Below are positions 29,107 through 32,987 of a stretch of 64,000 bases of DNA, piece after piece. The stretch lies in contig OY970368.1 of assembly GCA_963718615.1 (NCBI GenBank), positions 4,928,001-4,992,000 of the forward strand, in the 5' to 3' direction. How positions within the stretch are numbered: position 1 is the stretch's first letter; every line of letters begins with the position of its first letter. The notes beneath the pieces were generated by a model that saw only the letters and a program-made list of their open reading frames with translations, did no database searches and was not told the DNA's origin. Source of the stretch: an uncultured cyanobacterium (lineage in GTDB: Bacteria > Cyanobacteriota > Cyanobacteriia > PCC-9006 > JAAUQQ01). A program made the translations under genes and the position numbers.

Positions 29107-30066
29107 CTACACCGGCTCTAGGGCAAAAAATGTATCGAACATATGGTTGCCAACCTCGTTGACGCCGAGCTGTACCTCGTTGAGGAATTCGTGGAGCCCC
29201 TGTTCAATAATCTCGTCGATGGTGACATAGTCCAGCTCTGAGCAGAGTTTACCGAGAGCACGCTCTGCCGGGTTGCTCCAGGAGCGATTGGGGGTATCGG
29301 TGATGCGGTACAGACATTGCTGAGCCCGAATCAGACAGCTACGAATGGCGCGGGGAAATTCCCCATCCAAAATCAAGAACTGGGCGACGCCGCTGGGCCG
29401 GATGCGGTGATCGCCTTGACCTTTACGATACATTTCGTAGGCACTGGCGGATTTGAGCAGCGCCATCCACTGGATTTCGTCGATCGCGGTCCCCACGTCT
29501 TCCACGGAAGGTAGCAAAATAAAATACTTCACATCCAAAATCCGCGAGGTTTTGTCGGCCCGCTCTAGCAGCCGTCCCACCTGACCAAAGTGCCAGCCCT
29601 CGCCATGGCTCATGGTGCTGTCCATAATTCCCGCAAACAGATGGCTGGCGAGCTTCACCTCATTAAAAAAGTCCGAAGACTCCATCAACGACTCTAGGGG
29701 CTGCTTCGAGGCATCCCGCACCATCATGTAGAAATCATTCACCTGCTCCCACATTTCCGAGGAGATGATCTCCCGAACCGATCGCGCATTTTCCCGCGCC
29801 CGCTGCAAACAGGACAAAATCGAGTTGCCATAGTCGGGATCGAACGTCAGAAACTTTAGCGCCGTTTCTGTATCGAACTCCCCATAGCGCTCTTGAAACA
29901 GCTCCATATCCCCTGTGGTTCGAAGAATGGGCTGCCATTGCTGGGTAAAGCCGGGGGGCGAGTCGAGCAGCAGATTGACGTTGACATCAATGAAGCGGGC
30001 AACGTTCTCGGCCCGTTCAACGTAGCGGTTGAGCCAGTAGATGGAATCGGCAACGCGGCTGAGCAT
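29107..30066 (-). CDS. Alpha-E domain protein
   Basis: MLSRVADSIYWLNRYVERAEN and GRLLERADKT motifs. Confidence 0.92.
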   Translation of the reverse strand: MLSRVADSIYWLNRYVERAENVARFIDVNVNLLLDSPPGFTQQWQPILRTTGDMELFQERYGEFDTETALKFLTFDPDYGNSILSCLQRARENARSVREIISSEMWEQVNDFYMMVRDASKQPLESLMESSDFFNEVKLASHLFAGIMDSTMSHGEGWHFGQVGRLLERADKTSRILDVKYFILLPSVEDVGTAIDEIQWMALLKSASAYEMYRKGQGDHRIRPSGVAQFLILDGEFPRAIRSCLIRAQQCLYRITDTPNRSWSNPAERALGKLCSELDYVTIDEIIEQGLHEFLNEVQLGVNEVGNHMFDTFFALEPV

Positions 30067-30183
30067 GGCGGTATGGGTGCAGAAAATGGCAAGCGGTCAG
30101 TCTAGGCTGGCTTTAGCTTACAGAATTTCTTCCAGAATTTCTTCCAGAACTTCGGGTCTTGGGTGCAGAGAGGGGGCGATCGC

Positions 30184-30400
30184 TCCAACCCCCTTGCCCT
30201 CAGACGTCGTGCAACGGCTTATCGAAGATGGCAGAATCACTATGCCAAAGTTATGGAGGGATTACAGAGAGCTTTGAATGTGCAGAGATTAATACACAAC
30301 TGGGTCAGACCTCATGGTCGCTTTACTCAGAAGAAGACCACCCCTGCCATGGCTATGGGATTGATCGATAGGCCGCTGGCGATCGCAGAGATCCTTACCC
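30184..30400 (+). pseudogene. C-terminal fragment of an IS1-like transposase
   Basis: ALRRRATAYRR.QNHYAK...LQRAL..IHNWVRPH...TTPAMAMGLIDRPL; no N-terminus present. Confidence 0.7.
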
Positions 30401-31010
30401 CAATGGCAGCGGCAGCCTTTATTCAGCAGCCCTATGCCCCAGAGGCGGTGCTTTTGCGGAGGTGGGATGATTTAGCCAAGGAGCCCCAGGCCCCAACCCC
30501 AGTCCTTGAGCATTTCATCTAATCCTCCGAGAGACCCCTGGCTTTAGCCATGGGGAGGGATAGGAGCGCGACCGTGAGGGAGCAATTTGTGTTTCGCCCC
30601 AGAAGCTAAGACCTAAATCTACAAAATTTTTATGGAGCATAGCTTTCAACTATTCTAGAGTGGGTATGGAAAGCAAAAACCAAGCTTTCCCTTGCACCTT
30701 GAAAACTGAAGTTATGGGGTTCTGGTCAGGAATGCTTGGCCAGGTAAAAACTTCAAGCAACGAGTAGATGTCTTAGAGACACCGTACCGTGGGGCTCACG
30801 GAATCGGACCTCTGCAAAGGGGTGAAAGCCTGTGGACTTGAGTAAGACGGGAACATAGCAACGTTTGTTGTGGTGTACGCATCGTGAATGAAACAGGAAA
30901 TCTTTGGAGCGATCCGGAGAATCCCCCGGTTTCAACCGTGGGGAGTAGTCAATCCCATTCTCCAAACATGTCTGCAAACCCCTCAGCCTCGCTCGATGCC
31001 GAAGCGCTAA
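30401..31010 (+). pseudogene. Remnant of a phosphonate-associated HD-domain (PhnZ-like) gene, interrupted by the element at 30519-30952
   Basis: AAAFIQQPYA..AVLLRRWDDLAK..APTPVLEHF; removing the insert continues in frame as IPILQTCL...*. Confidence 0.65.
30519..30952 (+). mobile_element. Non-autonomous IS200/IS605-family element retaining an omegaRNA-type right end
   Basis: Left-end hairpin 30535-30555 preceded by GAGA; right-end hairpin 30923-30943 preceded by GAAT; terminal TCAA. Inserted after TTCAT with no target duplication. TnpB-tail remnant RTVGLTE..KACG. Confidence 0.88.
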
Positions 31011-31444
31011 CGCTACGCCCTGCCACCCCAGACGATTTGCCCCTGTTGATCGAGCTTTATGCGGCCATGGATGGCGAAGCGCCCTTGGCCCTAGGAGCGG
31101 TTGAAGCAGTTTTTCAGCAAATTCAGGCCATTCCCCACGCTCAAATTTATCTGGCTGCTTTGGGTCCAGACGTGGTGGGAACGTTCACGTTGTTACTGGC
31201 CCCGACCATGATGCACCGGGGAATTCATCGGTTTGCCTTGCTGGATGCGGTGACGGTTTTACCGCAGTTTCGCGGTCAAGGGATGGGCAAGGCGATGGTT
31301 GTAGCCGCACTCCATTTGGCCCAGGAGGCGGGTTGTTATAAGTTGATGTTGTCGTCGAATTTGCAACGCGATCGCGCCCACGCGTTCTACCGTTCCCTTG
31401 GCTTTGAACAGCACGGTTGGAGTTTTAGTCTAACAATATTCTAA
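30968..31444 (+). CDS. GNAT N-acetyltransferase (PhnO-like)
   Basis: FRGQGMGK and GCYKLMLSSN..R.RAHAFY motifs. The ORF-track start at 30884 lies inside the mobile element. Confidence 0.88.
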   Translation: MSANPSASLDAEALTLRPATPDDLPLLIELYAAMDGEAPLALGAVEAVFQQIQAIPHAQIYLAALGPDVVGTFTLLLAPTMMHRGIHRFALLDAVTVLPQFRGQGMGKAMVVAALHLAQEAGCYKLMLSSNLQRDRAHAFYRSLGFEQHGWSFSLTIF

Positions 31445-31736
31445 ACGGGCCAGGGATTCTAAATGGGCCGGGAACAGTAAACGTTTTCAGTCCAAACGGA
31501 TGTCTGAATCGTCCCTACCCTTTTGCTTGACGCAGATTGTTCTAAGCCTCACCCAGAGAAGGTTTGGCCCAATTCAGCAAGCAGTTTATGCCGAAAACCT
31601 GAGCATCCGCGTCTCCCGATGGGTACTTTAGATACAGTATCGTTTTCCAACCTTGATCACAAACTTCTGAACCGCAAACCTCTGACCGCAAACTTCCTTA
31701 GCCACATCTATCCTAAGCAATCCCCAGGGTGGCATC

Positions 31737-32987
31737 ATGACAGCTTTGGTGCAGCTTCCAGACCATTCAAACTCCAACTCATCCCCCATTGTCCAAGCCG
31801 TAGTGCGGCAAATCCAGCGGGCTGCCAGTGATCAAATCACAGGGAGCCTCAACTTTGATACGGTGCATGTGCCGCGCATGCGACTTTTTTTTGTCATGGG
31901 ACGGTTAATTTGGGCCGGGGGTGGCGTTCATCGTTTGCGTCGCTGGAATCGCCTGCTCAAAACCTTTTGTCCGGAGGCGATCGCCCACATCACCGCCCTT
32001 TCCGTCAATCTAGACACAGCCTTTTGGGAATACACGGTCCTGGGCCAGCTCGTGAAGGCAGGCCACATTAGCCGAGATGTAGCCCGTTCGATTATCCAGG
32101 CCAACATCGTCGAAGTCCTGTTTGATATTGTTCAGGCTTCCAAGCTGATCGAAAAATTTAGCTACACCAAAACCAATCTCCTCAATCCCCAGGACACCAT
32201 CACACTGATTGCCCCAGAAACGCTGATTCAGGATTTAGAGCGGCAGTGGGGCCAATGGTGTGAAGTGAATTTGGCTCCCTATTCCCCCAACTTGGCTCCA
32301 GCAGTCACACGACCTGGGGCACTCCAATCCCAGGTGACGCCTCAGACCTATGAAAAACTGATGCAGATGCTTAAGGGTCACCTGTCTTTGCGAGAGCTGG
32401 CGCTACTGTTGCAAAAGGATGTGTGTCACTTTAGTCAGTCAATTATTGCCTACGAGCAACAGGGCATTGTTCAGCTCCAAGTGATTCCGGACTTGGGGGG
32501 GACGACTGTTACACCCACAGCCGCAGCCCATTCCAGCGGGAGATCCACGTCTGCCCAAGAGGCCCTAAGCAATCTGCGCCGTACGATTAACCAGGTCACG
32601 GTCCGAGCCAAGGAACCGCCTTTGGTTATGTGTATTGATGACAGTCCGATTATTTGTCAGCGTTTACAGCAAATTGTCGAGCGAGCGGGCTATCGCTATA
32701 CCAGCATTCAAGACCCGATTCAGGCCCTGCCACTGCTGCTTTCGCAAAAGCCCGATTTGATTTTTGTTGACTTGGTCATGCCGGTCATTGGAGGCTATGA
32801 GTTGTGTAGCCAAATCCGTCGATTGCCTTCATTTCAGGACACACCGTTGATTATTTTTAGTGGCAATATGATCGATCGTATTCGCGCCAAACTCGTACGG
32901 GCAAACGATATTCTGGCGAAAGATGTTCCATCAGAACAAATTACTGCCACGATTGAGCGCTGGCTACCGCTCCATGTGGATCCCTAA
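31737..32987 (+). CDS. PatA-family response regulator
   Basis: N-terminal PATAN-like region (GGVHRLRRW.R) and C-terminal REC domain (CIDDS, FVDLVMP). Confidence 0.85.
   Translation: MTALVQLPDHSNSNSSPIVQAVVRQIQRAASDQITGSLNFDTVHVPRMRLFFVMGRLIWAGGGVHRLRRWNRLLKTFCPEAIAHITALSVNLDTAFWEYTVLGQLVKAGHISRDVARSIIQANIVEVLFDIVQASKLIEKFSYTKTNLLNPQDTITLIAPETLIQDLERQWGQWCEVNLAPYSPNLAPAVTRPGALQSQVTPQTYEKLMQMLKGHLSLRELALLLQKDVCHFSQSIIAYEQQGIVQLQVIPDLGGTTVTPTAAAHSSGRSTSAQEALSNLRRTINQVTVRAKEPPLVMCIDDSPIICQRLQQIVERAGYRYTSIQDPIQALPLLLSQKPDLIFVDLVMPVIGGYELCSQIRRLPSFQDTPLIIFSGNMIDRIRAKLVRANDILAKDVPSEQITATIERWLPLHVDP

Follow-up and report, generated by a model that had tools for sequence, protein, structure and literature searches.

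The 64,000-nt window analyzed here (positions 4,928,001 to 4,992,000 of contig OY970368.1, assembly GCA_963718615.1, from an uncultured cyanobacterium whose genome is coded G000) contains, at window positions 30519-30952 on the plus strand, a 434-bp protein-free element of the IS200/IS605 group of insertion sequences (ISs), of the PATE (palindrome-associated transposable element) or MITE (miniature inverted-repeat transposable element) type. The element lies directly 3′ of TTCAT (30514-30518), interrupts the 3′ remnant of an HD-domain (PhnZ-like) gene after ...EHF (30391-30518, +), and is followed from 30953 by TCCCATTCTCCAAACA. No direct repeat or target-site duplication was found at its junctions. 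A first-pass annotation had recorded the length, two subterminal hairpins, the terminal TCAA and the missing target duplication at these coordinates, and had proposed a non-autonomous element that keeps only the guide-RNA module of the nuclease TnpB; the observation is confirmed by the analysis below, which also supports that central reading. Throughout, other G codes denote other genomes, L codes loci and X codes sequencing runs.

The bounds of the element were set by two further copies. The second copy in G000 (637242-637679) is 98.4% identical over 438 nt, with differences at 7 of 438 positions; the likeness starts at TCAT and ends at TCAA, and the copy sits in unrelated flanks between two unrelated genes. 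A third copy, on a contig of run X8 (coded “organism A”, a related organism), has 8 differences and a third flank, and is again bounded by TCAT and TCAA. Because copies in different flanks share exact TCAT/TCAA bounds, the extent of the element is more than chance. No protein gene was found inside it: the largest internal frames span 35-74 aa, and none of the five frames tested had a Pfam match. G000 also holds a solo left end (LE; L003, 81% identity over 150 nt). Separately, a solo, near-palindromic right-end (RE) hairpin followed by TCAA was seen at G000 2238585-2238627 (97% over 33 nt), with the rest of the element missing; it may be a relic resembling repetitive extragenic palindromic sequences.

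Terminal inverted repeats are absent; instead, both ends carry subterminal imperfect hairpins, at 30535-30555 (+) in the LE and at 30923-30943 (+) in the RE. Folded as single-stranded DNA (ssDNA), the two are alike in form: each is a stem whose 3′ arm has a single bulged T, and the LE hairpin reads CCCCTGGC-TTTA-GCCA(T)GGGG and folds as ((((((((....)))).)))). Folding z values were −2.3 (LE) and −2.4 (RE), with equally good folds in 5 and 4 of 200 shuffles, respectively. At the foot of the LE hairpin lies the left DNA guide GAGA (30531-30534, +), and the right DNA guide GAAT (30919-30922, +) precedes the RE hairpin, as it does in 11 of the 12 family right ends printed (L020 has GGCT). TCAA (30949-30952, +) forms both the right cleavage site and the final bases of the element.

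In IS608, a 4-nt guide at the foot of each hairpin specifies the cleavage site, and the Helicobacter pylori element carries bulged-T CCCC...GGGG hairpins and a GAAT/TCAA right end. The window element resembles IS608 in these hairpins, in its GAAT/TCAA right end and in an LE guide that sets the target, and some members of the cyanobacterial family also combine TTAC with AAAG. Unlike IS608, it has neither tnpA nor tnpB in cis, and its target is TCAT with the guide GAGA. The IS608-type rule, on which the first-pass annotation had relied, holds at both ends: GAAT predicts TCnA at the right end and GAGA predicts TCnT at the left. Passages of Meers et al. 2023 (PMC10055086) refer to this rule. Copy pairs in other genomes, plus one pair between the sister genomes G177 and G290, delimit mobile units of 370-410 bp, each consisting of an LE of ~110-145 bp and the RNA module described below; all five of these pairs obey the LE rule, with TCAT accompanied by GAnA or TTAC by AAAG.

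The left cleavage site, which is the TnpA target and the presumed transposon-adjacent motif (TAM) of TnpB, is TCAT (30515-30518, +). It precedes all five related left ends in G000 (two MITE, two tnpB IS and one solo LE), which all start TCATC, as well as the X8 copy. The base before TCAT in the five G000 left ends is T, C, C, G or A; because it varies, the target is TCAT and not TTCAT. Thus, of the TTCAT insertion site and TAM given in the first-pass annotation, TCAT stands but the leading T does not.

The 3′ 265 nt of the element (30688-30952) constitute a structured RNA module that is found in many cyanobacteria. Its structure was assessed from 42 aligned non-redundant modules. The starting set comprised 65 of full length, of which 24 were removed for ≥92% identity to one that was kept; loci whose module runs off the contig, or that lack a GTCAA end in the expected range, are left out of this alignment. 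The consensus comprises 31 pairs in six helices, with changes on both sides in 25 of the 31 pairs. Standard pairing was observed in 94.1% of pairing cells versus 71.3% in column shuffles, and double changes in 310 cells versus 90.6, a value that none of 500 shuffles reached; when partners were slid by 1-3 columns as a control, 24-51 double-change cells remained. In the window copy, all 31 consensus pairs are standard pairs. Moreover, the paired-site substitutions between the two G000 copies keep pairing (30762, G-U to A-U; 30893, A-U to G-U).

The module has two parts. The 5′ RNA domain (30698-30764, +) is built of the nested helices H1 (30698-701/30761-64), H2 (30707-13/30749-55) and H3 (30721-28/30737-44), and contains the invariant motifs ACCUUGAAAA, GGGUUC and GGUAAAA; the first ~75 nt of the module are 81-92% identical across different families. 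The 3′ half comprises helix H4/H5 (30783-30806, +; CCGUG-GGGCU-CACGG), which is common to tnpB-encoded omegaRNA tails; an extra hairpin (30808-30823, +; ACCUCU-GCAA-AGGGGU, from a single-sequence fold) that is absent from tnpB tails, appearing as gaps against the tnpB-only element IS_A of G000 introduced below; the long-range helix H6 (30829-30897, +; CCUGU/ACAGG, 30829-33 with 30893-97), in which all five pairs show double-sided changes across the family; and a small hairpin just 5′ of the RE hairpin (30901-30920, +), with homologous hairpins in IS_A-type and L058-type tails. H4/H5, H6, the small hairpin and the RE hairpin all recur in the 3′ tails of full-length tnpB genes, and in IS_A and L058-type tails the H4/H5 hairpin is present with compensatory changes.

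Two remnants of tnpB coding sequence overlap this 3′ half. One is the frame RTVGLTESDLCKGVKACGLE followed by a stop (30783-30845, +), a C-terminal coding tail now conserved at the RNA level, whose ending ...KACGLE is comparable to ...NACGVE... and ...TRGQRGIENACGVEV... in full-length TnpBs with 3′ DNA that aligns here. The other, KQEIFGAIR (30891-30917, +), lies in another frame and matches the extreme TnpB C-terminus ...LKQEIFGAIRGI. Since both persist, the 3′ half derives from the 3′ end of tnpB. Supporting this conclusion, nhmmer profiles of the 3′ half and the 5′ domain, built separately and without the window row, were run against 22 tnpB tails. On the 3′-half profile, IS_A-type tails scored 20-34 bits, tails of a 1789-bp IS type 11-17 and a third type 10-14; none of the 22 tails matched the 5′-domain profile. 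The window copy itself reached 65.7 bits with the 3′-half profile, matched over its full length, and 73.5 bits with that of the 5′ domain, indicating a scaffold that is not decayed relative to its relatives. The proposed TnpB guide-RNA module is therefore borne out by multiple copies, by the lack of any Pfam-matching frame, by homology to tnpB tails and by covariation. As for the earlier statement that only a TnpB tail remains, the frame and its tnpB homology hold, but the additional 5′ domain does not fit a recent deletion product.

The invariant GAC of the conserved GUAAGAC (30846-30848, +; −107 to −105 from the element end) is a candidate pseudoknot partner of the equally invariant GUC at 30948-50 (−5 to −3); both are invariant in the family, hence no covariation signal is possible. 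By analogy with the ISDra2 omegaRNA, in which −5 to −3 pair with −103 to −105 according to passages of PMC10097598, the two triplets may form the same pseudoknot. As a side observation, the module occurs in two subtypes, distinguished in alignment columns 320-400: one, to which the window copy belongs, has the small pre-RE hairpin and the other lacks it. Both are found with the TTAC target, L054 having the hairpin and L049 and L050 lacking it.

Rfam returned no match at E≤1 for window 29500-32000. In five other family loci, Rfam gave only a sub-threshold overlap with HgcC, along with unrelated tRNA and CRISPR-repeat matches. The HgcC match of L054 is weak (20.9 bits, E 0.35, against a gathering score of 50). 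The likeness to HgcC (RF00062), and to the sotRNAs of IS1341-type tnpB as far as passages of PMC4615843 describe them, lies in an RNA made from the tnpB 3′ end plus the RE. In G177, the surroundings of the RNA-only element (within 700 bp; L050 1898-2007 and 2195-2268) hold a tRNA gene and two repeats of the CRISPR-DR58 type, of which one exceeds the gathering score.

Across the class, a module match at E≤0.01 was present in 63 of 401 sampled genomes (G000 is included in both counts). An exact-pattern scan for the 5′ motif, with one genome per species, returned at least 120 stretches; the 80 loci among those listed were almost all from named Cyanobacteria (Microcystis, Crocosphaera, Limnoraphis, Spirulina, Nostoc, Scytonema, Microcoleus and others). 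In two matches to the motif, both in Firmicutes bins, what follows is unlike the module. One contig end, from a “Rhizobium” metagenome-assembled genome (L101), has the motif in exactly the Microcystis form; mis-binning of a cyanobacterial contig is thus suggested, and not spread beyond Cyanobacteria.

Within ±2.5 kb of the 80 listed loci, tblastn with three TnpB types found no upstream same-strand match; a TnpB fragment lies downstream on the opposite strand of L148, the single such case among them. No TnpB-like frame was seen in a set of 13 family-match loci, of which L034 was a reverse-transcriptase gene with a chance match to part of the motif and was dropped. From these sequence comparisons, the element appears not to be a recent deletion product and to come from an RNA-only lineage that is old, carries a further conserved 5′ domain and has no tnpB in cis among the loci listed. 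No published description of this cyanobacterial family or its 5′ domain was found in the article texts searched; relatives may be among the PATEs or standalone omegaRNAs listed in Meers 2023 or Altae-Tran 2021. The family is thus widespread in Cyanobacteria and apparently undescribed.

Two 1325-bp tnpB-only ISs, IS_A and IS_B, reside in G000 (4763340-4764664, +, and 1852035-1853359, −). They are 99.3% identical, and each encodes only a 395-aa TnpB in which the HTH, OrfB_IS605 and TNB domains of Pfam are all present, closest among solved structures to ISDra2 TnpB (E about 1e-86). Both lie after TCAT and terminate in GTAGTCAA. Identity to the MITE is 87.7% in their left ends (73 columns aligned, covering MITE positions 1-72) and 77-79% in their right ends (~65 nt). 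Near-identical LE and RE hairpins are shared by the MITE and a co-resident tnpB IS of IS_A type in both G248 and G139. Where a gene follows a TCAT-type LE motif, it is an IS_A-type tnpB at 67-77% identity and never tnpA, and in four of the five further genomes with a MITE an IS_A-type TnpB at ≥68% identity occurs. As these genomes have many TnpBs, little weight attaches to co-occurrence by itself; the shared ends argue more strongly. On the grounds of shared ends, co-residence and shared TCAT, the IS_A/IS_B TnpB is the likeliest candidate user of the MITE RNA. A tnpA or tnpB element with the same ends had been suggested as a check on the first-pass annotation; the tnpB half of such a partner is present in two copies, but no tnpA element of this kind was found in G000 or in five other genomes.

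G000 has seven good Y1 tnpA genes, six of them in copies of a 1789-bp tnpA-tnpB IS. This IS has different hairpins and a left boundary of CTAC with AGTG, which also fits the guide rule; the seventh tnpA element (at 693 kb) ends in TCAC. The conserved post-hairpin LE segment of the MITE, GGGATAGGAGCGCGACCGTGAGGGAGCAAT (30556-30586, +), is common to IS_A and IS_B, and the LE of the autonomous 1789-bp IS holds a similar GGAGCGCGACCG..GGAGCAA motif. We also observed that the segment GGAGCGCGACCGTGAGGGAGCAA following the LE hairpin is nearly the same in the MITE, the tnpB-only IS and the 1789-bp IS (for example, at G000 ~714.2 kb); the homologous elements of G139 and G154 differ there. The likeness may reflect recombination among IS types, or a shared protein-binding or promoter element. 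Other arrangements were noted among these ISs. In one copy of the 1789-bp IS (e4882, at G000 ~4882 kb), part of the left end occurs a second time, as an 85-bp duplicate in front of the element. G049 has 19 copies of the IS_A left-end type in 2.6 Mb, and its locus L234 (1501-2437) contains an IS_A-type element with ~900 bp of extra DNA, without a recognisable TnpA, between the left end and tnpB.

The geometry of the element predicts a 16-nt guide, TCCCATTCTCCAAACA (30953-30968, +), in an RNA that reads through the right end; after excision, the same sequence would come directly after TCAT. At the MITE flanks in G000, the predicted RNA ends are TCCCAUUCUCC... and CGGGCCAUGAC.... Contigs of copies 95-99% identical to the element, from organisms other than the window source, were obtained from three metatranscriptome runs of three studies: a 279-nt contig of X1 covers 30681-30952 plus 7 nt, one of X3 covers 30776-30952 plus 71 nt past the element end, and one of X2 covers 30598-30820. 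The RNA runs are metagenomes with small shares (0.09-0.16), in which uncovered parts are uninformative. As a hint only, these contigs fit an RNA with the 5′ domain that reads through the right end. A scan for off-targets of the guide (first 12 bases, ≤2 mismatches) gave hundreds of uninformative matches. An exact 18-mer, AGTCAATCCCATTCTCCA (window 30947-30964, the last 6 bases of the element and 12 of the flank), recurs at G000 366880-366897 with no hairpin nearby and a BLAST E of 0.011 for a 161-nt query; the recurrence is probably due to chance.

The empty site itself can be read from the interrupted gene. In the matching frame, the flank right of the element translates to PILQTCLQTPQPRSMPKR followed by a stop. 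HD-domain homologues have C-termini such as ...NDFLPYLQHCLQLY (stop), ...DHFLPMLQQV... and ...THFRPWLAACL..., and continue after ...HF with LPMLQQV..., LPYLQHCLQLY (stop) or RPWLAACL.... Because the homologues read on alike across the junction, excision would restore EHF-IPILQTCLQ. The frame restoration claimed in the first pass is thereby confirmed, but the restored gene would be a remnant: only residues 131-173 of a 188-aa HD homologue have a match in G000, which makes the host gene a 3′ stump even before the insertion. The open reading frame (ORF) 30163-30522, which has no match in Pfam, is chimeric and joins a C-terminal piece of a transposase to the last ~45 residues of the HD gene. Its residues 9-85 match a multicopy transposase-like frame in many relatives (up to 15 matches per genome), and residues 76-119 match the C-terminus of ~190-aa HD-domain proteins. 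This fusion resembles the product of an earlier truncation of this HD-domain gene by an IS. Downstream, outside the element, lies a GNAT acetyltransferase gene (30968-31444, +; PF00583, 5.5e-14).

Elements of this general kind have been described. Passages of PMC10055086 state that PATEs, including those of Geobacillus stearothermophilus, “often encode omegaRNAs” and would need TnpB in trans, and passages of PMC4615843 report that a PATE-derived RNA is expressed in Halobacterium. As far as these texts describe PATEs (those of Haloquadratum and Halobacterium in the latter), the window element shares with them a fused LE and RE, the lack of a protein gene, a presumed mobilisation in trans and an RNA that would depend on a TnpB encoded elsewhere; in a comparison with published PATEs by text only, it differs in its spread over many cyanobacterial genera and in a 265-nt module with a conserved 5′ domain that the tnpB-encoded tails do not show. 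Standalone mobilised omegaRNAs also function in trans, according to a passage of PMC10691335 citing Altae-Tran et al. 2021 Science; in comparison, the candidate effector here is an ISDra2-like TnpB on a tnpB-only IS. The scaffold resembles that of ISDra2 (PDB 8H1J, 8BF8), insofar as the sources present it, in occupying the last ~120-170 nt before the guide and in having GUC/GAC at the pseudoknot positions. Unlike ISDra2, the presumed TAM is TCAT rather than TTGAT, the RNA lies apart from the protein gene, and there are an extra hairpin and a structured 5′ domain.

Based on these data, we consider it likely that the element is a non-autonomous IS200/IS605 PATE/MITE whose sole cargo is a ~270-nt structured RNA gene, the 3′ ~170 nt of which are a TnpB omegaRNA scaffold, and that it homes in trans. 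First, a Y1 TnpA supplied in trans would excise the top strand immediately 3′ of TCAT and of TCAA, with the guides GAGA and GAAT selecting the cleavage sites, and would insert the excised strand at the 3′ side of a different TCAT. An omegaRNA ending TCCCAUUCUCC..., with whatever follows TCAA as its guide, would arise when transcription crosses the right end. The ISDra2-like TnpB from the two 1325-bp tnpB-only ISs would then load the MITE RNA in trans. Finally, the loaded TnpB would cut the scarless empty site, TCAT + TCCCATTCTCC..., and recombination with the sister chromosome would restore the element.

Several observations weigh against this mechanism. The MITE-bearing genome G177 is 95% complete, and its nearest TnpB is only 41% identical to that of IS_A. 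The MITE scaffold departs from the IS_A tail in the extra hairpin, the 5′ domain and an RE that is only 77-79% identical; because the scaffolds differ, loading of the MITE RNA by IS_A TnpB is not assured. None of the seven tnpA elements in G000 has CCCC...GGGG hairpins or a TCAT target, and a crude regular-expression scan of 20 TnpA loci in five other genomes, which could miss divergent ends, found only other RE hairpins; the element may thus be immobile in G000. As the two G000 copies differ at 7/438 positions, there has been no very recent jump. A promoter and terminator consensus scan of 30300-31200 found no sites, the ends of the X1-X3 contigs are not RNA ends, and DNA carry-over is possible in RNA libraries. 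Lastly, the strongest conservation, that of the 5′ domain, is not explained by homing, because the equivalent region of ISDra2 is described as dispensable for cleavage in passages of PMC10097598.

Some of these points would favor a stranded fossil, that is, a true RNA-carrying PATE that is inert in G000, where no empty site would arise without a compatible TnpA and the RNA would be idle. The lack of a tnpA element with matching ends, the presence of only two copies, different at 7/438 positions, the scan without a promoter-like site, and the solo LE and solo RE hairpin, which show related elements decaying, are all in line with it. However, all consensus pairs are intact and both paired-site substitutions keep pairing, both of the near-identical tnpB genes of the partner ISs are intact, and the related organism of run X8 has a third insertion site. 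Furthermore, TnpA recognises hairpin shape and guides, which makes cross-mobilisation by a resident TnpA conceivable. We therefore regard a fossil as unlikely, while giving it more weight than the alternatives that follow.

The RNA might instead act without guiding cleavage, as a decoy or sponge that would bind up TnpB (or TnpA) and so dampen its protein-coding relatives, or as a small RNA useful to the host through its 5′ domain. The 5′ domain is the most conserved part of the module (up to 92% identity between families), is missing from all 22 tnpB tails tested, and sits where, on the account in PMC10097598, the ISDra2 omegaRNA is dispensable. Overexpression of the PATE-derived RNA also improved growth of Halobacterium in a passage of PMC4615843. 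Nonetheless, the scaffold half, the RE and the read-through geometry have all been kept, none of which a pure decoy would need, and the multicopy, patchy distribution at varying loci (63/401 sampled genomes) is typical of selfish DNA and not of a host gene. Such a role seems somewhat less probable still than a fossil.

That the conserved pairing reflects ssDNA structure for TnpA-mediated top-strand transposition, with no RNA involved, is very improbable: IS200/IS605 elements do move as top-strand ssDNA, and same-strand G-T pairs, such as the U-G present in 40/42 rows at one pair, would be tolerated in DNA too, but the omegaRNA tails of tnpB genes have homology to the conserved region, which is exactly the part covered by contigs from RNA libraries. 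TnpA, for its part, is known to need only the subterminal hairpins and guides.

Beyond homing in trans by a TnpB-dependent element, we tentatively suggest, at slightly less than even odds, that the family is a self-standing, old guide-RNA-only lineage with its own 5′ domain, which repeatedly swaps or co-evolves its ends with those of co-resident ISDra2-like tnpB ISs and is a hyperparasite of TnpB elements. The RNA-only lineage, the conserved 5′ domain and ends that track those of co-resident ISDra2-like tnpB ISs are what goes beyond the known systems. If this is true, the 5′ domain would supply something that the tnpB mRNA gives protein-coding elements, with TnpB-independent expression, processing or stability, or a second activity, as candidates.

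Since the general phenomenon has already been published, the gain is a well-defined new family and not a new principle. The locus is a clean natural case, with an exact empty-site prediction checked on homologues and an identifiable partner nuclease. The family alignment, with its strong covariation, could seed an RNA family model, and the 5′ domain gives a handle on what an omegaRNA needs outside the tnpB message, which might aid the expression of compact guide RNAs. Guide-RNA-only transposons show that the two halves of a TnpB system, RNA and protein, are able to evolve and spread independently, a separation that represents a step from transposon nucleases toward CRISPR-like trans-acting guides.

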